Positions 11,436 through 36,978 of a stretch of 64,000 nt of DNA are shown one piece after another. The notes under the pieces were generated by a model. That model did not search any database. It saw only the letters and a list, made by a program, of their open reading frames with translations, and was not told the DNA's origin. The position numbers and the translations under genes were made by a program. The first letter of the stretch is position 1. The number at the start of each line of letters is the position of its first letter. Source of the DNA: an uncultured Actinomycetota bacterium (lineage in GTDB: Bacteria; Actinomycetota; Actinomycetes; Mycobacteriales; CAVVZQ01); NCBI GenBank assembly GCA_963752715.1, contig CAVVZQ010000007.1, positions 72,215-136,214 on the forward strand. The letters run 5' to 3'.

Positions 11436-12491
11436 TCACCGCTCCCCGTCGGTGGCAGACTCCTTCCCCAGTCGGTCCAGCAGTGCGACGGTGGCGGCCA
11501 CGATTTCCGCCTGGGCCTCAGCCCGGCTCGTCGTGGGCTCCCCGTCCCCGGGCTGCTCCCCGTAGTCGCCGAAGTAGGCGTGAACCGCCCCTGCCACCTC
11601 CACGAAGGTCGTCGCCGGCGGCAGGTCCGATGCCCCGGCCAGCACCTGCTCGGGTGTCGCGAGCCCGTCCTGCGAGCCATATATGGAAGCGACCTCCAGT
11701 GCCTCGGCCGAGAGGTCATTGGCCGGCCAGGACGCCCACAGAACCAGCCCTGCCACCTCCGGGTCGCCACTGCCCGCGTACTGGCTGGCCGCCACGCCCC
11801 CCAGGGAGTGACCCCCCACCGCCCATGACCCGCCATCAGCAACCCAGTCCGACGCGGCGTTGATGCACAGCAGAGCGGTGTCGAAGGGACACTTCGGCAC
11901 TATGACGGGGTGACCCTGGCGCGCGATCTCCCGGGCCAGCACGGAGTAGGCACGCGGGTCAACGCGGGCGCCGGGGTAGAGCACCAGCCCAGCCCCGGAC
12001 TGCTGAGCCGGCGTGAAGGTGATCACCGATCGGTCCTGAGTCACGGTCACTGTCGCGTCGCTGTTCGTCGCGTCCAGGGCCGCGCTGCTCGCCTCGAACG
12101 GGCGGTACCAGACGAGCACGGCCGCCAGACCGACTCCAGCGGCGGCCGCTGCCACCCGCAGGATCAGACTGACCGCGCCTCCGGACGGCCGACTGTGTGT
12201 CAGCACGCCACTGAGCACCAGGACGACACCCAGCAGGGCCGCCAGAATCAGCGCCACCGGGTACGCGGGATGGTTGGCGACCAGCGCACCCCACGCGCTC
12301 ACGGCGACCACGCCGACCGCCAGCAGCAAGACCACGCCCGGCACGATTCGCAGGACCCGCACCCGGTCATCATGCCGGTACCGCCGGCGAGGCGCCTCGG
12401 CCCGCCCGCGGTGACGATGCAGCGACGATCGAGGTGATAGAGACGGACCGTGCGGCGGTCCCAGAGGCGAGGCATCGATCGTCCCAGCCAT
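11436..12491 (-). CDS. Membrane-anchored alpha/beta hydrolase
   Basis: N-terminal TM helices and the nucleophile elbow 'GGHSLGG'. The start is uncertain (ATG at 12491 or GTG near 12360). Confidence 0.7.
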   Translation of the reverse strand: MAGTIDASPLGPPHGPSLSPRSSLHRHRGRAEAPRRRYRHDDRVRVLRIVPGVVLLLAVGVVAVSAWGALVANHPAYPVALILAALLGVVLVLSGVLTHSRPSGGAVSLILRVAAAAAGVGLAAVLVWYRPFEASSAALDATNSDATVTVTQDRSVITFTPAQQSGAGLVLYPGARVDPRAYSVLAREIARQGHPVIVPKCPFDTALLCINAASDWVADGGSWAVGGHSLGGVAASQYAGSGDPEVAGLVLWASWPANDLSAEALEVASIYGSQDGLATPEQVLAGASDLPPATTFVEVAGAVHAYFGDYGEQPGDGEPTTSRAEAQAEIVAATVALLDRLGKESATDGER

Positions 12492-13808
12492 TCGGACGCA
12501 CCAGGACCGGGGACTGCTGACCGGAATGCCGAACGCGGGCATCCCCTGCCAGGTGAGCAGGCGGCTCGCGTCGCGGCGGTCCTCGGGCCCGAGACGGCCC
12601 ACGCACGGGTGCACGACAGTCCCGCTGACCGCAGCTGGACCGCGGACCTCGGCCTCGCGGCCGTCACGATCGGGCATGACATCCACTTGGGCGCCGCGAT
12701 CGCGTCGGAGTCCCAGGCGGTACGAGAGGCCATTCTGGCCCATGAACTTGTCCACGTGGCACAGCAGGGCAGCGCGGCCCGCTCCGCACCACCCGCCCGC
12801 GAGCTCTCGCCCCCGGCGCAGCGCGGAGGGCACGAGGATGAAGCCGAAACCCTCGCCCCCCAAGCATTCCTGGCCTTGCAGCACGGCCTTCGAACCGGCG
12901 CCCGCAGAAACCTACTGCCCAGACCACTGGCACTCCACGGATGCCCGGAGGACGCCGTTGCGAAGATGAAGGACCGCAAGCGGGAACTGGAACAGACAAC
13001 TGCCCCGCGCTCTGGCAAGTCGTTCTCAGAGGTCGGTGCTGCCTATACCGAACTTGTGGATGTCGAACATGACCTGGCTGTCAAGGAGTCCGGACGCGGC
13101 CTCTACAAGGGCAGCGAGTCCGGCGACACGAGCGCCGCCAAGGTCACCGACTGCACCGAGATCGTCTTCGAAGTGCTCCGCAAGACGTTCGCTCAGCAGG
13201 GCAAGAGCGCCGACTGGGCGAAGGTAGAAGCCAAGTACCGAGCCAACATCAAGGCCCGGGGCGGCGGCGGAAAGGGCTCCGGACTCGACCTGCAGGCAGC
13301 GCTGCAATCGGAGCTCGGATGGAAGGGGATCTACTGGGCGCCCGATCCGTCCTTCGCCTACAAGGGCAGCGAGGCACCGCAGGACCAGCGGCATCTGTCA
13401 GGTCGGGTGAAGGGAGACGAGGCCGACTACGGCGCGGGCCTCGCGAAATCGAAGGGCACCTACTACAAGGACTTCGGAAAGAAGGGCTACCCCGGCGTGA
13501 GCATCCATCAGAGAGTCACCGGCTACGGCCCGGAGAAGGGAAGCACCACCGTCGCCGACCGCACCGGCCTGAACAAGCTCAAGAAGCTGCCCTTCGGAGT
13601 CATGTCCGCCCACGGCGGGCACCACATGACTCTCATCACCAGTGGCAAAGTCACAGAGGTGCACTGGCGGTCCCCGGCTACCAGCCCGGACGTCATCACC
13701 CAGGAGGACCTCGAGACCTGGGCCATCGGCCCGAGCAGCGGCATCCGCTACTTCGCCAGCGGCGCCATCGTCGCACCCGCTGCAGACGTGGACGCCGCCT
13801 TCCGCTGA
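12450..13808 (+). CDS. DUF4157 (zincin-like HExxH) domain protein with uncharacterised Lys-rich Cys/His C-terminal domain
   Basis: 'ARVHDSPADRSWTADLGLAAVTIGHDIHLGA...ILAHELVHVAQQ' matches the DUF4157 pattern. The C-terminal ~270 aa contain 'VTDCTEIVFEVL' and 'SAHGGHHMTLI'. Confidence 0.7.
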   Translation: MRRSQRRGIDRPSHSDAPGPGTADRNAERGHPLPGEQAARVAAVLGPETAHARVHDSPADRSWTADLGLAAVTIGHDIHLGAAIASESQAVREAILAHELVHVAQQGSAARSAPPARELSPPAQRGGHEDEAETLAPQAFLALQHGLRTGARRNLLPRPLALHGCPEDAVAKMKDRKRELEQTTAPRSGKSFSEVGAAYTELVDVEHDLAVKESGRGLYKGSESGDTSAAKVTDCTEIVFEVLRKTFAQQGKSADWAKVEAKYRANIKARGGGGKGSGLDLQAALQSELGWKGIYWAPDPSFAYKGSEAPQDQRHLSGRVKGDEADYGAGLAKSKGTYYKDFGKKGYPGVSIHQRVTGYGPEKGSTTVADRTGLNKLKKLPFGVMSAHGGHHMTLITSGKVTEVHWRSPATSPDVITQEDLETWAIGPSSGIRYFASGAIVAPAADVDAAFR

Positions 13809-13845: not shown

Positions 13846-14409
13846 TCAGCTGTTGACCGTGAACACCTGCTTCTGGACGCCGTTGGGGTAGGCCTGATGC
13901 TCCACCAGCGTCAGCATCGTTTTGTCCCGGTCGGTGTCGCTGAACAGCCGCTTGCCGGCACCCAGCAGGAGTGGGAACACCAGCAGGTGGTACCGGTCGA
14001 CCAGGCCGGCGTCGGCCAGACTCCGGCCCAGCGTGGCGCTGCCGTGGACGATGATCGGTCCGCCGTCGGTGTCCTTCAGCGCGGCGACGTCGGCCACCGA
14101 GCGGAGGATGGTGGCGGGCCAGCGGGGGTCCGACTCGGTCAACGTGGTGGAGACGACGTACTTCGGCATCGCGTTGTAGCCGGGGAACTCCGTCATGGTC
14201 GGCCACACCGGCGCGAACGCCTGGTAGCTGGTCCGTCCCAGCAGAAGGGCGGTCGCCTCGTCCTGCTCCCGTGCCTTGATCTCGTAGACATCGGGATCGA
14301 ACTCGATGTCCTTGACGGTCCACCCGGTGTTCCGATAGCCCGGCTCGCCGCCGGGCGCCTCCATCACACCGTCCACCGACACGAACGCGGTCACGATCAG
14401 CTCACGCAT
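13846..14409 (-). CDS. Dihydrofolate-reductase-like (RibD C-terminal domain) family protein
   Basis: 'MRELIVTAFVSVDGVMEAP...LLLGRTSYQAFAPVWP...IIVHGSATLGRSL...YHLLVFPLLLGAGKRLF'. Confidence 0.8.
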   Translation of the reverse strand: MRELIVTAFVSVDGVMEAPGGEPGYRNTGWTVKDIEFDPDVYEIKAREQDEATALLLGRTSYQAFAPVWPTMTEFPGYNAMPKYVVSTTLTESDPRWPATILRSVADVAALKDTDGGPIIVHGSATLGRSLADAGLVDRYHLLVFPLLLGAGKRLFSDTDRDKTMLTLVEHQAYPNGVQKQVFTVNS

Positions 14410-14594
14410 TGGAACACCTCGCCATGGACCGGAGTGAGTCGGCTGCATCGGAGTCTAGGAGCAGGCCCCCGACGCGCACGATCCAGATCGTGCGCCGAAA
14501 GTCCGCGCGCGGACTTCCCCGTGGCTCCGTCTCGCCCCCTGATCACGCGCTGTCCCGGTGCCGGAGATGCAGGGCTGCAGCCGCACGGCGCGTC

Positions 14595-14662
14595 TACGCC
14601 GGTACGCCGGTACGCCGGTACGCCGGTACGCCGGTACGCCGGTACGCCGGTACGCCGGTACC
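14595..14662. repeat. 8-bp microsatellite (TACGCCGG) x8 plus a partial unit
   Basis: Perfect copies counted from 14595 to 14658, then 'tacc'. It lies in the divergent intergenic region between 14409 (-) and 14765 (+). Confidence 0.95.
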
Positions 14663-16221: not shown

Positions 16222-16667
16222 GGCCGACGGGCCGACAGCTGCTGGAGGCACCCCACAGCTGGAGTTTGAGGCAGCCTGCAGGTGGACGCGGTTCGACGCA
16301 GGCCTTGAGATGCTGGCCGATGACCAGGCCACGGCACGCTGCGACAGCCGCGTCGGGCACGAATCCGACCAGCGGTGGGACGCCACAGGCTCCGCCTGCA
16401 ATGGCGGATCGCCGTGGCCCAGAATGTGACCTCTGTCACACCCGCGTCAGGGATCCGTACCGCGCACGTCCCTACAAGTGACTACATCACCGACCTCACA
16501 CAGGGACGAGATCATGACTCAGAATGTCGAGACCACCCAGGCCCAGTACCAGCCCGGCGACATCGTCAACGGCCACCAGCTCAGCCCGGAGGGTCAGTGG
16601 GTGCCCGTCGCCACCACGACGACCGCGCCGCCCCCCGCGCAGCAGCCGAGCGAAGCCGAAGCAGGGC

Positions 16668-17186
16668 ATGAGCAGGACCAAGAAGATCCTCATCGGCGCA
16701 GGCGCCGCACTGGCCGCCGTCATCGTCTTCGGCGCCATCACCAGCGGCGGCGAGGAGAGCACCGACACCGGCAGCGGCACCGTCGCCACGCAGGACGCTG
16801 ACGCAGGCGTCGGCGACGCGGTGCGGGACGGCAACTTCGAGTTCACGGTGGACGGCGTCGAGTCCCTCGGTGACACCGTCGGCGACCAGTACTTCGGCGA
16901 GACCGCCCAGGGCGAGTACATCGGCGTCACGGTCACCGTCACCAACATCGGCGACGAGGCGCAGGCCTGGTTCGACGACAACCAGACCCTGATCATTGAC
17001 GGCAAGGAGTACAACGCGGACTCGATGGCCACCATCTTGATCAACGACGATGGCTTCTACGAGGAGATCAACCCCGGCAACACGATGACCATCACCCTGG
17101 TCTACGACGTGCCCGCCGGATCCAGCCCCTCAGCCATCGAACTGCATGACAGCGCCTTCTCCGGCGGTGCCACCGTCAAACTCTGA
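16668..17186 (+). CDS. DUF4352-domain membrane-anchored protein
   Basis: TM 'ILIGAGAALAAVIVFGAI' followed by 'FEFTVDGVE...GEYIGVTVTVTNIGDEAQ...'. An upstream ORF (ATG 16514) in another frame may be its original N-terminus. Confidence 0.7.
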   Translation: MSRTKKILIGAGAALAAVIVFGAITSGGEESTDTGSGTVATQDADAGVGDAVRDGNFEFTVDGVESLGDTVGDQYFGETAQGEYIGVTVTVTNIGDEAQAWFDDNQTLIIDGKEYNADSMATILINDDGFYEEINPGNTMTITLVYDVPAGSSPSAIELHDSAFSGGATVKL

Positions 17187-17302
17187 CAACACGCACACCC
17201 CGACGCCCGGCAGAGCCGCATCCCAGCGGACCTGCCGGGCGTCGGGCGTCCCCCTCCCTCCCGAATCGACAAGCGTCCGGGCACGGCGGGGGGCCGCGCC
17301 TG

Positions 17303-17425
17303 AACCAGCGGGTGGACGCGGAGGGCGTCGTCGAGCCGAGCCATCAGGTGCGGCGGTACACGGCCGACCACCGAGTCCGACCGCTCCAACGGCACCGAGC
17401 GGACCTGAACTCCCAGCGCCTCGCC
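17303..17425 (-). pseudogene. mazF: MazF/PemK-type toxin, 3' fragment
   Basis: 'GEALGVQVRSVPLERSDSVVGRVPPHLMARLDDALRVH' matches the MazF C-terminal pattern (..QVRSV..ERL...G.....M..VD.AL..H). Confidence 0.6.
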
Positions 17426-17442
17426 TTGCCACCAGCCGGCAT

Positions 17443-18025
17443 GTCCTCATGGGACGGCGATGCCATGATCGACTGATGGCCATGCCGACCGCACCCGAGG
17501 TCCATCTCGAAACGGCCGCGCAGTGGCACGACTGGCTGGCGACCCACCACGACACCGAGGCCGGTGTCTGGCTGGTCTCGTGGCGGACCGCCACGGGGCG
17601 GCCCCGGATCGACTACGAGGACGTGGTGTGCGAGGCGCTGCGGTACGGGTGGGTGGACAGTACGGTCCGGGTGCTCGACGACGAGCGCAACGCGCTCTAC
17701 CTGGCGCGTCGCAAGAAGGGCAGCACCTGGGCGCGCTCCAACAGAGAGCGGGTGGCGCGCCTCACCGCTCAGGGGCGCATGCAGCCCAGCGGCCTGGCGG
17801 CCGTCGAGCGTGCCAAAGCCGACGGGTCTTGGACGGTGCTGGACCCCGTCGAGAACCTGGTCGTGCCGGAGGACCTCGCTGCTGCACTCGACGCGCGCCC
17901 CGGCGCGCGGGCCGCGTACGAGGCACTGCCGCCCTCGGCGCGCAAGCAGATCCTGTGGTCGGTCGTCAGCGCGAAGCGACCGGAGACCCGGGCACGCCGG
18001 GTTGACCGGGCTGTGGCCACGCTCG
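17443..18025. repeat. Direct repeat copy 1 (583 bp) covering the first mazE codons, the intergenic region and ydeI-like
   Basis: Near-identical to 21930-22523, apart from substitutions near the left edge, one substitution near 18003, and an 11-bp insertion in copy 2. Confidence 0.9.
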
Positions 18026-18039
18026 AGTCCGGTCTCTGA
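17476..18039 (+). CDS. YdeI/OmpD-associated (OmdA-domain) family protein, intact copy
   Basis: 'YLARRKKGSTWARSNRERVARLTAQGRMQPSGLAAVERAKADGSW...SARKQILWSVVSAKRPETRARRV'. Confidence 0.7.
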   Translation: MAMPTAPEVHLETAAQWHDWLATHHDTEAGVWLVSWRTATGRPRIDYEDVVCEALRYGWVDSTVRVLDDERNALYLARRKKGSTWARSNRERVARLTAQGRMQPSGLAAVERAKADGSWTVLDPVENLVVPEDLAAALDARPGARAAYEALPPSARKQILWSVVSAKRPETRARRVDRAVATLESGL

Positions 18040-18050
18040 GTGGGGCCGCA

Positions 18051-18075
18051 CTGTGCCCGGTCCGACCGGGCACAG
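18051..18075. terminator. Perfect 10-bp-stem hairpin downstream of ydeI copy 1
   Basis: 'ctgtgcccgg-tccga-ccgggcacag'. No U-tract follows. Confidence 0.35.
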
Positions 18076-18133
18076 GCGCAGTGGACAGCGATGGTGCGTG
18101 CGCACAGCGACTGCACGTAAGCCGCAAGCACCA

Positions 18134-18178
18134 TCAGGCAGGCGCGACGCCCAGCTGCTGCACCATCGCGAGTCGATC
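18134..18178 (-). pseudogene. Ester cyclase 3'-terminal remnant (paralogue of 6568-6981)
   Basis: 'DRLAMVQQLGVAPA*' versus 'NMAMMQQLGIAPA*' at 6568. About 40 nt of nucleotide similarity includes the stop codon. Confidence 0.4.
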
Positions 18179-18275
18179 CCCATTGGGAGGGTGTGTCGGC
18201 CCGTGTAGGCGAGGATGCCGCGCCGGAACAGTCCCGGATCGACACGGATCGACAGGGTCGAGGCGGGGAGTCCTC

Positions 18276-18440
18276 ATGTCGGAGCTGCGGGCAGCGACGC
18301 GGCTGGTTCGCGTGACCGGCGGACCGCGTCGTGAGCAGGCCCGAGACATGCTCCGGGACGCCTACGGGCGCTTCACCGAAGGGCTGGACTACCCGGACCT
18401 GCAGGCAGCGCGTACCCAGATCGAGGCCGAACCGGCATGA
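18276..18440 (+). pseudogene. C-terminal remnant of a cyclase/ATPase-TPR regulator
   Basis: 'ARDMLRDAYGRFTEGLDYPDLQAARTQI' resembles the conserved tail (..VY..FTEGFDT.DL..A..LL) of that family. Confidence 0.4.
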
Positions 18441-18937
18441 ACCGGCTCGTGGAGTGCGGGTCATCGAGTCCCAGTCGACCTCCGGCCCCGGTCACCCTCC
18501 TGCGAAGGGCGGCATGGCGTCCACGACGGCCCCCTCGGGCAGCACCACCTCGACGTCCGCGGCGGGCCCGCCGTCGACCGCAACCGGCCATGGTCGCCGC
18601 AGCAGCGTTCGTCGGTGCGGGACGCATGGACGGAGGTCGCTCCGCTGCGCACTCCGGTGCGAGTTCCGCGCGCCCCGAGAGCCACGCGCTGATGGCCCCG
18701 CTTGCCGAACCGTCGGCGCGCCGCTGGATCGGCTCGGAGACCCTCAGCCCGCCGGCTGGACTTCCATGCTCACCTTCTCAGGAGCATTCCTGATCGAGGT
18801 CGGCGGCGTCGACCAGGCAGCCGCAGGGTGGCTGCTGGGGCTGGCAGCCGGCCCGTGGCCAGCGATCGATGAGAGCGGTCACCACCACCACCAGCATCGA
18901 CTGGAGTCGAGGGGTGGCGCTGAGTCACGAGCACGCG

Positions 18938-21745: not shown

Positions 21746-21953
21746 CAACGAGCCCGTCGCCGGCGATGCCTTCCCAGACCTCGGCGTCTCCCGCGGCCTC
21801 CCACTCATCCCAGGCAGTCGCGTACGCGTCCTCCAGCGCAGGGTCGGCCAGCCTCCCGATCGCTTTCTGGACAGCCGCCGAGCGCGACGGCAGCCCCGTC
21901 GCCTTCGCGCAACGGTCGAGGAGGGCGACGTCCTCGTCGGACGGCGATGCCAT
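21732..21953 (-). CDS. mazE: Ribbon-helix-helix antitoxin (MazE/CopG-like)
   Basis: 'DEDVALLDRCAKATGLPSRSAAVQKAIGRLADPALEDAYATAWDEWE'. It lies immediately upstream of the toxin 5' fragment. Confidence 0.65.
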   Translation of the reverse strand: MASPSDEDVALLDRCAKATGLPSRSAAVQKAIGRLADPALEDAYATAWDEWEAAGDAEVWEGIAGDGLVDAAR

Positions 21954-22523
21954 GATCGACTGATGGCCATGCCGACCGCACCCGAGGTCCATCTCGAAAC
22001 GGCCGCGCAGTGGCACGACTGGCTGGCGACCCACCACGACACCGAGGCCGGTGTCTGGCCGGTGTCTGGCTGGTCTCGTGGCGGACCGCCACGGGGCGGC
22101 CCCGGATCGACTACGAGGACGTGGTGTGCGAGGCGCTGCGGTACGGGTGGGTGGACAGTACGGTCCGGGTGCTCGACGACGAGCGCAACGCGCTCTACCT
22201 GGCGCGTCGCAAGAAGGGCAGCACCTGGGCGCGCTCCAACAGAGAGCGGGTGGCGCGCCTCACCGCTCAGGGGCGCATGCAGCCCAGCGGCCTGGCGGCC
22301 GTCGAGCGTGCCAAAGCCGACGGGTCTTGGACGGTGCTGGACCCCGTCGAGAACCTGGTCGTGCCGGAGGACCTCGCTGCTGCACTCGACGCGCGCCCCG
22401 GCGCGCGGGCCGCGTACGAGGCACTGCCGCCCTCGGCGCGCAAGCAGATCCTGTGGTCGGTCGTCAGCGCGAAGCGACCGGAGACCCGGGCACGCCGGGT
22501 CGACCGGGCTGTGGCCACGCTCG
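21930..22523. repeat. Direct repeat copy 2 (594 bp)
   Basis: Matches 17443-18025. It contains the tandem duplication 'ccggtgtctgg' x2 at ~22048-22069. Confidence 0.9.
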
Positions 22524-22540
22524 TACCTGATCCTGCGTAG
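21963..22540 (+). pseudogene. YdeI/OmdA-family protein, copy 2, frameshifted by an 11-bp tandem duplication
   Basis: The N-terminus 'MAMPTAPEVHLETAAQWHDWLATHHDTEAGVW' switches frame. The remainder is read in the 22010-22540 frame. Confidence 0.85.
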
Positions 22541-22562
22541 GCCAGCCGGTGCACGGTCCGAC

Positions 22563-22598
22563 CCGGTACCCAGACCGGTACCCAGACCGGTACCCAGA
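22563..22598. repeat. Perfect 12-bp tandem repeat (CCGGTACCCAGA) x3 abutting the GNAT RBS
   Basis: Units at 22563, 22575 and 22587, then 'aaggag' and the ATG at 22612. Confidence 0.95.
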
Positions 22599-23527: not shown

Positions 23528-23538
23528 GCGTGCCGCAC

Positions 23539-23570
23539 TGGGCGGGTACTGGGCGGGTACGGGCGGGTAC
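23539..23570. repeat. 10/11-bp tandem repeat (TGGGCGGGTAC) x3
   Basis: 'tgggcgggtac tgggcgggtac gggcgggtac'. It lies between 23527 and 23606. Confidence 0.9.
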
Positions 23571-35196: not shown

Positions 35197-35988
35197 CTAG
35201 GCGCGTCGGGCGGTGATCGTCACTTCGCTTTCTGGTGTGATCATGCTGCCCGGAGCGGGCGTGATCTCTTCAACCACCTGGCTGCCTGCTCGTTGAGCTC
35301 CACGCACCAGGACCAAGGGCTCGGCGGAATGCCCCGCGTCCCGAAGCTGGCACAGGGCTTCGCTCAGCCCCAAACCGACTACGTCTGGGACAGCGACCGT
35401 TGCACCAGTCGCGACCCGCAGGAGGACTCGTGCCTTGCCGGTCACTGGTGTTCCTGCAGCAGGCTCTTGCGACAGGACTGTTCCTGCGCGAACCGGACTG
35501 TCTTCCGCGAGCCTGTGGGCCTCCATCTCAACGTCCGAGAGGCTCTGACGTGCGTACCGGTATGGCATACCCACTACGTCCGGCACTGGCCGTGGCTCTC
35601 GAAGGCGGCGCGCGACCCAACGGTCTTCGGCGGGTGGCAGTTCCTCGGACAGCCGCAACGCGGCCCGGCGGACGTCGAGTGCTCCCTGACCATCGACGCC
35701 AAGTCTGTCCATCAGTTCCTGAAGAGACATCCGTAGCAGGTCGGCCCGCGTCAGGTCGGGGTGCCCTTCCGAGATCCTGGCGGCGACGGCATCGTCGAGT
35801 CCTTCGATCGCAGTTGCTGGGGTGTTGTCCGGGTGCCCAGCTTCATTGATACGGCGGGCCACACCCTCAGCCTGGAACTGCGTCTCGTGCCATTCAAGCG
35901 GGCGAGGGTAGCGCTGCGGCGAGACGGATCCCACGTAGAGAGAGTCCCGTATGGCTTCAGCCCATCGCGTCGCATCCGCGATCGTCAT
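35197..35988 (-). CDS. Hypothetical protein D: novel N-terminal domain plus two C-terminal PASTA-like repeats, no signal peptide or TM
   Basis: 'PVPDVVGMPYRYARQSL...AGTVLSQEPAAGTPVTGKARVLLRVATG' and 'VAVPDVVGLGLSEALCQLRDAG...GSQVVEEITPAPGSMITPESEVTITA'. Confidence 0.65.
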   Translation of the reverse strand: MTIADATRWAEAIRDSLYVGSVSPQRYPRPLEWHETQFQAEGVARRINEAGHPDNTPATAIEGLDDAVAARISEGHPDLTRADLLRMSLQELMDRLGVDGQGALDVRRAALRLSEELPPAEDRWVARRLREPRPVPDVVGMPYRYARQSLSDVEMEAHRLAEDSPVRAGTVLSQEPAAGTPVTGKARVLLRVATGATVAVPDVVGLGLSEALCQLRDAGHSAEPLVLVRGAQRAGSQVVEEITPAPGSMITPESEVTITARRA

Positions 35989-36010
35989 CGAATCGCCAAG
36001 GGCCGGCAGG

Positions 36011-36655
36011 TCAACAGTCCCCGCAACGTCGAGCTTCGTGAACGATACCGGGGCCTTCCGTCGCGTTGACCGAAGGCCCGACCTCGGCTGGCGAGCAGCA
36101 GCACAAGCCCGTCTCGTGGAGCAACAAGGACGTGGGTACTCGGTCAGCCTTCCGCTTCCGCACGAAGAAGTCGATCTTGACTGAGGCATCGGGGAAGACC
36201 GCGGCCCACTCGTCCATGCCGACGTGACCGGCCTTCCAAAGGTTCCAGAGGTAGCTGGCGTCGACCGCTTTGATCCGGAGTTCGATCCGCGCCTCGTTCT
36301 TCGCGGGGTCGACACTAACGGTGACCGTCACCGCATCCTGGACAGGCCAGTCGGCGACGATTCCTGCGAACTTGACGTGATAGGGGCCTCCGACACGGTC
36401 CAGGTCGAACTCCCACCCAGGTTCAGGGGTGTGGACGAACGACTCCTGGTGGACGATGCTCTCCCTGGCATAGGTTTCTGCTGGATGCGGCTTCTTTCCG
36501 ACCCATTCTTTTTTCCACGGGTACTCGAATCTGTGTTCTGGATAATCATCCGACTGGTAGTCCCGCCGCCACTGTTGTGCCTTGTCGGGACGCCCGAGCT
36601 CGGTTGCTACGTACGCGCTCTCGAGCGTCGCCTTGACACAGAATTGTCCATCCAT
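36011..36655 (-). CDS. Hypothetical protein C (no recognised family)
   Basis: Protein-like composition ('YPWKKEWVGKKPHPAETYARESIVHQESFVHTPEPGWEFDLDRVGGPYHVKF...'). Lower GC than its surroundings. Confidence 0.55.
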   Translation of the reverse strand: MDGQFCVKATLESAYVATELGRPDKAQQWRRDYQSDDYPEHRFEYPWKKEWVGKKPHPAETYARESIVHQESFVHTPEPGWEFDLDRVGGPYHVKFAGIVADWPVQDAVTVTVSVDPAKNEARIELRIKAVDASYLWNLWKAGHVGMDEWAAVFPDASVKIDFFVRKRKADRVPTSLLLHETGLCCCSPAEVGPSVNATEGPGIVHEARRCGDC

Positions 36656-36978
36656 GCTGGACGGGCCACGACCAGCATGAAGTCCTGCACCCCCTCGAGC
36701 TCTCGTGGTCCGTTCACCAGCGTGGGTAGTCCCTGAACGACATGGGGTCGGGGCGACATCAGGAACAGGACGCGGTTGGTTCCTGTGTGGAAACTGGCGA
36801 GTTGATGGTGGAGCTGTGTGAGTTCTGTCGCGTGGGAGTACTCCTCACGCTTCTCAGCACTCGAGTCGGTCGTCTGCAGCGTCGACCTCGCCTGCTGGTT
36901 CACCCTCACCGTTCGGTCGTCCCCACCCAGCATCTGCCCAAGCTTCCGTACCCAGGGCTCCGCCAGCAGCACCACCAA
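36607..36978 (-). CDS. Hypothetical protein B (no recognised family)
   Basis: The frame opens after a TAG. 'GGGGAG' precedes TTG/GTG/GTG starts at 36978/36975/36972. GC3 is higher than in the overlapping tail of ORF A. Confidence 0.45.
   Translation of the reverse strand: MVVLLAEPWVRKLGQMLGGDDRTVRVNQQARSTLQTTDSSAEKREEYSHATELTQLHHQLASFHTGTNRVLFLMSPRPHVVQGLPTLVNGPRELEGVQDFMLVVARPAWMDNSVSRRRSRART

Follow-up and report, generated by a model that had tools for sequence, protein, structure and literature searches.

A probable orphan eCIS-type effector with a predicted thiol-hydrolase toxin head in an uncultured actinomycete

The window analysed here, a 64-kb stretch of DNA (~70% G+C) from contig CAVVZQ010000007.1 of an uncultured Actinomycetota bacterium, encodes at 12450..13808 on the + strand a 452-aa protein that we explain, with a rough probability of 0.5 for the explanation as a whole, as an orphan polymorphic effector from the class that extracellular (eCIS) or cytoplasmic contractile injection systems carry, with a predicted thiol-hydrolase toxin head that is probably directed at the envelope of the target cell. 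The architecture and the class of such proteins are known, and many unnamed heads on DUF4157 proteins exist; the toxin-head family is new.

Effector architecture and relatives in eCIS loci

The open reading frame (ORF) is complete, running from a GTG start to a TGA stop, and contains only two in-frame start codons, GTG 12450 and GTG 12609. The former is taken as the real start because the PF13699 match from residue 32 and the tblastn similarity to a Rhodococcus orthologue, which starts at nt 12537, both begin upstream of GTG 12609. The public gene call P0001 is identical in sequence but shortened to 399 aa from GTG 12609, and omits 53 residues (window 12450-12608) that comprise the first third of DUF4157 and the entire disordered N-terminus; shortened calls of this kind would conceal the presumed loading signal from automated surveys. 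Scans for promoter and terminator consensus sequences near the gene gave no useful information. The features of the protein, with the predicted catalytic residues of its C-terminal toxin domain (CTD; CTD numbering is full-length numbering minus 163), are the following.

12450..12542, +, residues 1-31: N-terminal region, hydrophilic, Arg-rich and predicted to be disordered; candidate cargo-loading sequence by analogy with Cgo1/Cgo2
12543..12773, +, residues 32-108: DUF4157/eCIS_core domain (PVC-metallopeptidase), PF13699 match
12774..12938, +, residues 109-163: Ala/Pro/Arg-rich flexible linker with one helix (128-145), ending in LALHGC
12939..13805, +, residues 164-452: CTD, 289 aa, Lys-rich, of a family without existing annotation
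13152..13154, +: Cys235 (CTD Cys72), in VTDCTEIVFEVL; predicted nucleophile, conserved in 156/156, first residue of helix 72-86
13623..13625, +: His392 (CTD His229), the last His of MSAHGGHHMTLI; conserved in 161/161, opens a β-strand
13656..13664, +: Glu403-Val-His405 (EVHW; CTD E240-x-H242); Glu in 156/162, His in 158/162, on the partner strand of the hairpin

The PF13699 (DUF4157, now eCIS_core) match has E = 8.8e-14 and 51.9 bits against a cutoff of 22, covers profile positions 1-77 of 79 and includes an intact HExxH motif (HELVH, residues 98-102, nt 12741-12755), in agreement with an earlier note on this DNA, made from its letters, that had placed an N-terminal DUF4157 with HExxH here. 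In the full-length AlphaFold model (pLDDT 79.7 overall, <50 for residues 1-25), residues 31-111 form a compact DUF4157 fold. The note's further term, zincin-like, holds for the motif and the Pfam assignment but not for the fold, as a Foldseek search of the full-length model against the PDB gave no zincin or metallopeptidase match for this domain, which is modelled at pLDDT 70-88. Residues 1-31 have a mean hydropathy of -1.83, and 71% of them are disorder-promoting. No signal peptide or transmembrane segment is present in the 452-aa protein (highest 19-residue hydropathy window 1.38), and with no such hydrophobic segment the effector is therefore not exported by the Sec, Tat or lipoprotein routes.

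The linker is disordered at 113-130 and 149-165 in the full-length model. A junction motif, L-x-L-Q-R-C-[SK], recurs between DUF4157/linker and toxin head (P0042-P0074 among the members) and could mark a joint made by recombination or a site processed by the HExxH module; the window version at 12915-12947 (residues 156-166) is the degenerate LALHGC, and other members have LQRTPA. The L-x-G-C where linker and CTD meet (LALHGC in the window protein, MCIAGC in the stand-alone forms) was considered as a lipobox and rejected, because the stand-alone ORF has a stop 14 codons upstream, leaving no room for a signal peptide, and because in fusions the motif is the internal L-x-L-Q-R-C junction. Lys makes up 9.0% of the CTD and 0% of the N-terminal 163 aa, as compared with 1.58 ± 1.19% (maximum 3.9%) in 30 likely window genes, and Gly makes up 12.5% of the CTD against a background of 9.1%, which bears out the Lys/Gly-rich character noticed earlier. 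High Lys is typical of the CTD family (mean 7.5%), and the net charge of the window CTD is +4.

The relatives of the protein point to delivery by eCIS. Intact eCIS operons holding a CTD gene were found in Rhodococcus, in an Acidobacteriota metagenome-assembled genome and on a metagenome contig. The orthologue P0002 of Rhodococcus sp. T7, with the same architecture and 64% identity overall (74% in the CTD), lies between Pvc16/sheath/tube/sheath and tube/CIS_tube/VgrG/base_V/gp25/baseplate genes and adjoins another DUF4157 gene. P0008, which has the CTD and no DUF4157 of its own, sits in a second intact operon with a DUF4157-only gene on either side, and with both of these operons as queries the Acidobacteriota member (L016) was located inside a third. 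Sheath, baseplate or AAA genes lie near the members at L005, L009, L015 and L017, and the members at L011 and L014 are in arrays of DUF4157 genes. Homologues in L001, L021, L016, L005, L009, L015 and L017 are located within ~10 genes of an eCIS operon, as are ~88% of known eCIS-associated toxins (EATs; ≤10 genes; PMC11297309). Two other EAT characteristics are found in the window protein itself, namely DUF4157 in the protein or in a gene at most two positions away, and, by prediction, a hydrophilic disordered N-terminus.

An N-terminal DUF4157 followed by a variable C-terminal toxin is the published signature of EATs (PMC8213781, PMC11297309, PMC3482391). In AlgoCIS, Cgo1 and Cgo2 follow a plan of N-terminal domain, DUF4157 and C-terminal domain in which the disordered N-terminal domain is required for tube loading and DUF4157 is dispensable for it (preprint 10.64898/2026.05.27.728243). 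The window protein resembles the DUF4157-fused toxins of this kind (Cgo1/Cgo2, EAT11, EAT14) in its disordered N-terminus, DUF4157 with HExxH, linker and variable C-terminal toxin, in the lack of a Sec signal, in having homologues in eCIS operons or beside DUF4157-only genes and in the frequent lack of an immunity gene. It differs in that its CTD belongs to no described head family (nuclease, deaminase, transglutaminase, ADP-ribosyltransferase and others), in that the window copy is far from eCIS genes when most known EATs are nearby, and in that loading and toxicity are here predicted from sequence. In Streptomyces, spike and tube-initiator proteins are bound by DUF4157 proteins or co-purify with them (PMC11126660, PMC13277306), and the actinobacterial effectors of contractile injection systems (CIS) such as Streptomyces Tme and Sle1/Sle2 share with the present protein an actinomycete host and DUF4157 proteins that are encoded in CIS clusters or next to them and bind components of the spike or baseplate. 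However, Tme and Sle1 are effectors of a tape-measure-like, membrane-active or nuclease kind with lengths of 400 to >2,000 aa, whereas the window protein is predicted to be a compact soluble enzyme with a different head, outside any cluster. Taken together, the architecture is very probably that of an eCIS-type effector. The earlier proposal of an injected or secreted effector with a novel catalytic domain is supported by the homologues in eCIS operons and DUF4157 arrays and by the toxin-head behaviour, invariant Cys and His and absence of a known family or fold described below.

The toxin-domain family and its predicted active site

A word-indexed search found 25 close clusters, and an exhaustive HMMER profile search of 1.84 billion representatives extended the CTD family to 441 clusters at E ≤ 1e-3, 98 of them at E ≤ 1e-30. 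One unnamed DUF4157 toxin head has thereby become a defined family with a confident model and four candidate catalytic residues. Its range is patchy over at least seven phyla (Actinomycetes, Gemmatimonadota, Betaproteobacteria, Myxococcota, Acidobacteriota, Bacteroidota and Chloroflexota), and the domain is almost always C-terminal, being followed by ≤15 aa in 145 of the 169 retrieved members. It is joined to DUF4157, Ig-like, helical, S8-VanY, hemopexin-M15 or Amidase_2 modules and also occurs in stand-alone forms; DUF4157 is found in 43 of 104 divergent members, and also in the members at L008, L009, L015, L017, L019 and L020. Judged from these domain arrangements, the CTD is acting as a polymorphic-toxin head recombined onto diverse N-terminal modules. 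Patchy spread and shuffled N-termini have been described for PVC/eCIS polymorphic toxins (PMC3482391, Zhang et al.; PMC8213781, Geller et al.), and 983 of 1,130 predicted DUF4157 toxins have no annotated head (PMC11297309, Danov et al.).

Unannotated 'pre-toxin' modules recur upstream of the head (P0006, P0011, P0015, P0019, P0021, P0023 and others). One is probably Ig-like and ends in YADRSFYVWT; a helical one, LTYGLFDWVITDxDA, has a sub-threshold resemblance to the Tse3 N-terminal domain; and a third, L-x-P-x-EMAEL...DELS, is present in the M15 and Amidase_2 fusions as well as in other members. The T6SS_Tse3_N and T7SS_signal matches in members stay below threshold (~22 bits, cutoff 27), extend over ~30 residues in linker modules and not in the CTD, and were not used as evidence.

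Conservation was counted over 181 aligned CTDs. The earlier note had singled out a Cys in VTDCTEIVFEVL and a His cluster in MSAHGGHHMTLI; Cys235 and His392 are indeed invariant, but the remaining His residues of MSAHGGHHMTLI are variable across the family, and the pair Glu403-x-His405, almost as conserved, had been overlooked. CTD residues Trp128, Asp136, Gly236 and Pro280 are near-invariant. The CTD modelled alone with 24 homologues (AF2) reached a pLDDT of 92.6 and a pTM of 0.91, and DSSP of the AlphaFold model places CTD residues 229-234 and 237-241 in a tight hairpin with the invariant Gly236 in its turn. From this two-residue hairpin register, His229 and His242 are expected to be opposite each other, and Glu240 to point to the same face. 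The predicted layout is that of a Cys-His-His/acid thiol hydrolase, and conservation and model alike make it likely that the CTD is a thiol enzyme.

No known family or fold accounts for the domain. The CTD gave no match in Pfam (E ≤ 1), NCBIfam, PADLOC, PHROGs or PDB sequences, with only spurious tRNA-synthetase coiled-coil matches appearing in the PDB sequence searches with single protein and profile. Foldseek searches of the CTD model against the PDB and BFVD returned nothing at E ≤ 1e-3 (best TM ≤0.3), and NlpC/P60, CHAP or Tae structures were absent from the matches. A likeness to deubiquitinases and proteases of ubiquitin-like proteins (TssM USP-like, UfSP, M48, Josephin) at E 0.8-5 and TM ≤0.3 did not recur with the full-length model and was dismissed as noise.

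The resemblance to papain-like NlpC/P60 (PF00877) or Tae4 amidases raised in the earlier note did not survive as homology. There is no Pfam match and no fold match, and in hhalign the CTD family profile, compared with an alignment of Escherichia coli MepS, MepH and NlpC, left the catalytic Cys residues unaligned at a probability of 1%; a permissive Pfam scan (E ≤ 10) of the 104 divergent members found no recurrent papain-clan family. In layout, the CTD is like papain-like wall effectors (NlpC/P60, CHAP, Tae1-4 with periplasmic Tai immunity from type VI secretion systems (T6SS), Tox-NLPC/P60 from Zhang et al. 2012), with a Cys at the N-terminus of a helix, a His on a strand and a His/acid ~12 residues on in the next strand, as well as in its periplasm-facing immunity-like partner in diderms and its co-occurrence with other wall-hydrolase domains (see below). 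Sequence, profile and fold comparisons, in contrast, show no similarity to these proteins; the Cys-to-His spacing is ~155 residues in the CTD and ~50 in NlpC/P60, and the CTD, at ~290 aa, has an N-terminal helical hairpin and a conserved W-x4-W-A-P-D-P strand. The CTD may work like an NlpC/P60-type enzyme, yet it is not a demonstrable member of that family.

Target of the toxin domain and rival explanations

Clues to the target come independently from fusion partners and from a lipoprotein neighbour. Three members with wall-hydrolase matches above Pfam cutoffs carry the CTD: P0127 is a subtilase (S8)-VanY-CTD protein (VanY 45 bits, metal-binding motifs intact), P0087 a hemopexin-M15_4-CTD protein (26.3 bits) and P0082 an Amidase_2-CTD protein (27.1 bits). 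Three further M15_4 matches fall below the cutoff, and no Sec signal was found in the wall-hydrolase fusions. Downstream of the toxin gene, five Myxococcota loci have an ORF of 169-241 aa, with its start and the toxin stop overlapping (ATGA/GTGA), at the following positions.

L010, 10791-11360: downstream lipoprotein ORF
L013, 10537-11259: downstream lipoprotein ORF
L017, 10774-11316: downstream lipoprotein ORF
L019, 10849-11373: downstream lipoprotein ORF
L020, 10753-11259: downstream lipoprotein ORF

Four of the five proteins start with a lipoprotein signal (VAAC, VGAC, LVAC, LVAC) and one with a membrane anchor. They are 26-45% identical and have in common conserved Cys and Trp residues and the motif F-[AS]-P-[DG]-C; Pfam contains no match for the family. 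The toxins at three of these loci (L017, L019, L020), which are Kofleriaceae toxins, carry DUF4157, and no homologue of the lipoprotein is present in the window or in the eCIS-embedded loci. From its arrangement, the Myxococcota lipoprotein looks like a periplasmic immunity protein and is a candidate for a new immunity family. A translationally coupled, periplasm-facing partner is the standard form of immunity to envelope-acting toxins, as in the T6SS pairs Tae/Tai and Tle/Tli, and for this reason an envelope target is the one we prefer, peptidoglycan before membrane lipid. The balance of these clues tips slightly towards an action of the CTD in the envelope; that it acts on peptidoglycan specifically is a more tentative proposal, at somewhat below even odds. 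The family thus comes with a candidate immunity partner and a testable substrate hypothesis.

In the explanation we propose, the disordered hydrophilic N-terminus would serve as the loading signal, as in characterised cargo, and would be followed by DUF4157 (PVC-metallopeptidase), which elsewhere binds the spike/baseplate complex or is proposed to process cargo, and then by the flexible linker and the 289-aa toxin domain. Cys235 at the helix N-cap would act as the nucleophile, with His392, facing Glu403 and His405 across the β-hairpin, providing base and charge relay, and the CTD would most likely hydrolyse a bond of the target envelope, the first choice being a peptide or amide bond of peptidoglycan. 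Envelope hydrolysis would explain both the periplasm-facing lipoprotein partner in diderm producers and the relatives fused to VanY/M15 and Amidase_2 wall hydrolases, and a monoderm producer that keeps a signal-less toxin in its cytoplasm would need no immunity gene, which fits the window. Release in this genome would depend on a CIS encoded outside the 64-kb window or on cell lysis. If the CTD is a new wall- or envelope-degrading enzyme, it would contribute an additional antibacterial activity and, for engineered injection systems, a cargo of compact size. A bolder form of the proposal, which we regard as possible and clearly speculative, is that the CTD represents a structurally new thiol-hydrolase superfamily and a novel type of antibacterial toxin that is directed at the envelope, is paired with a lipoprotein immunity family of its own, serves as eCIS cargo in at least seven phyla and can move in actinomycetes as a bare gene-plus-leader cassette without immunity.

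Several points weigh against an envelope-directed eCIS effector. The wall-hydrolase fusions are a small minority (~6 of 104 members, three only above Pfam cutoffs), and the lipoprotein partner, with its putative immunity role, is confined to one phylum. The chemistry of the CTD is derived only from conservation and secondary structure, with the proximity of Cys235 and His392 in space being a prediction, and no link of family or fold to any peptidoglycan hydrolase or papain-like enzyme was found. In the window, the effector gene has no eCIS gene in the 12 kb upstream of it or in the 50 kb downstream. Finally, a wall hydrolase delivered to the cytoplasm, the usual destination assumed for eCIS cargo, would be on the wrong side.

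Injection into the target cytoplasm is the first argument for an alternative in which the protein is still eCIS cargo, but its CTD acts in the cytoplasm by modifying proteins, as a thiol protease, deamidase or transglutaminase-like enzyme, possibly a ubiquitin-like protease used against eukaryotic prey. Proteases of the Atg4/UfSP type have a Cys...DxH arrangement of which the Cys...ExH spacing of the CTD is reminiscent, and USP-like, UfSP and Josephin structures make up the weakest tail of the Foldseek matches, although those matches are the ones that vanished with the second model. Moreover, many of the heads fused to DUF4157 are enzymes of this sort, among them Tox-TGase, Tox-UCH and Tox-PLC39 (PMC3482391) and the EAT14 transglutaminase (PMC11297309). 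A cytoplasmic target would, however, leave unexplained both the lipoprotein partner in five diderm loci and the VanY/M15/Amidase_2 fusions, and we consider it unlikely. That same partner is also compatible with a target in envelope lipid or lipoprotein instead of peptidoglycan, with the CTD then working as an acyl hydrolase or acyltransferase in the manner of Cys-His-His LRAT/HRASLS enzymes or T6SS Tle lipases. The immunity proteins of Tle lipases are likewise periplasmic lipoproteins; a site of one Cys, two His and one Glu would suit such an enzyme, and the Lys-rich, net-positive CTD could bind anionic membranes. As the fusion partners are wall hydrolases, not lipases, and the CTD matches no lipase or LRAT family, a lipid or lipoprotein substrate appears improbable.

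The remaining alternatives concern the role of the protein in its producer. It might be a CIS accessory that remodels or lyses the producer's own wall for particle release, or that drives CIS-dependent developmental cell death as in Streptomyces. The CTD genes of the three intact operons are placed mid-operon among structural genes rather than at the 3′ end, the monoderm hosts have no immunity gene, and actinobacterial CIS act intracellularly in differentiation (PMC11126660, PMC13277306). On the other hand, shuffling of the CTD onto many N-terminal modules and its patchy occurrence in seven phyla are typical of toxin heads, in Myxococcota a lipoprotein partner is dedicated to it, and the window copy has no CIS genes with it at all, so that an accessory function is the least probable of the readings weighed here. 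The gene could also be a stranded cassette in this genome, intact but functionless for lack of a delivery route and awaiting loss. In keeping with this, it is a single-gene indel without partner genes, the 64 kb contain no CIS genes, and its G+C content at third codon positions (GC3) is a little lower, at 0.80, than the 0.85 and 0.92 of its neighbours. Yet the full length of the ORF is retained, as are HExxH and the four predicted catalytic residues, and the absence of CIS genes applies to the 64-kb window only and not to the remaining ~480 kb of the 544-kb contig, which makes a functionless remnant rather unlikely.

The gene in its own genome

The effector gene forms a cassette of one gene that varies between strains. 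A contig of a close relative (L022), collinear over ~11 kb at 89-97% nucleotide identity (blastn), has the two flanking genes 88 bp apart and no gene between them. The corresponding features of the window are as follows.

12381..13802, no strand: additional segment of 1,422 nt, comprising 69 nt upstream and nearly the whole effector gene; L022 has 14 nt (GGGGCGACGGGGAG) at the same place
11436..12362, -: flanking membrane-anchored α/β-hydrolase (Abhydrolase_5), with its start codon 18 nt from the left junction
13846..14448, -: flanking RibD_C-family reductase, convergent, 38 nt from the effector stop codon

The right junction falls just before the last Arg codon and the stop codon of the effector, and those codons lie in sequence common to L022. 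No target-site duplication and no terminal direct or inverted repeats (>8 nt) were found at the junctions, and the 1,422-nt segment contains no second gene; this clean 1.4-kb indel shows toxin-gene movement between close strains without the hallmarks of a mobile element. The outgroups L023 and L025, two more distant relatives, do not share the synteny and do not polarise the indel; gain of the cassette is more economical than loss because of the distribution of the family and the slightly lower GC3 of the gene. The hydrolase has its best named relatives in Demequina, Agrococcus, Serinicoccus and Pseudonocardia (46-49% identity). As the earlier note had remarked of eCIS structural genes and of an immunity gene, the window provides no companions for the effector: neither a second DUF4157 gene nor an immunity homologue is present in the 64 kb, and homologues of sheath, tube, VgrG, gp25, baseplate, AAA or Pvc16 genes are likewise absent.

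Other differences from L022 lie nearby. A perfect 8-nt tandem array (TACGCCGG x 8.4) occupies 14595-14661 in the spacer adjoining the RibD_C gene; ~210 nt around it do not align to L022, which has no copy of the repeat unit. The window is also longer than L022 at 16285-18916, between the genes for flavodoxin and ArsA; the extra DNA encodes a DUF4352 protein (16524-17186) and contains the first copy of a direct duplicate of ~630 nt, 95.5% identical (17443-18073 and 21930-22569). At ~23536-23541, L022 has a 2.4-kb ABC-transporter pair (ABC_tran and ABC2_membrane) that the window does not. Because of this last difference together with the other indels, the neighbourhood is a hotspot of strain-level gene gain and loss. 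Two regions further downstream are of lower G+C content. The region 35197-38140 (G+C 0.63-0.65) holds a gene for a PASTA-domain protein (35197-36315, -) and a 428-aa ORF without a Pfam match. The region 42822-45000, where G+C drops to its lowest in the window (0.57-0.62, as compared with ~0.70), looks like foreign DNA. In it lie a gene for a 417-aa protein that matches the astacin (M12A) metallopeptidases at 27.7 bits and a 268-aa ORF without annotation.

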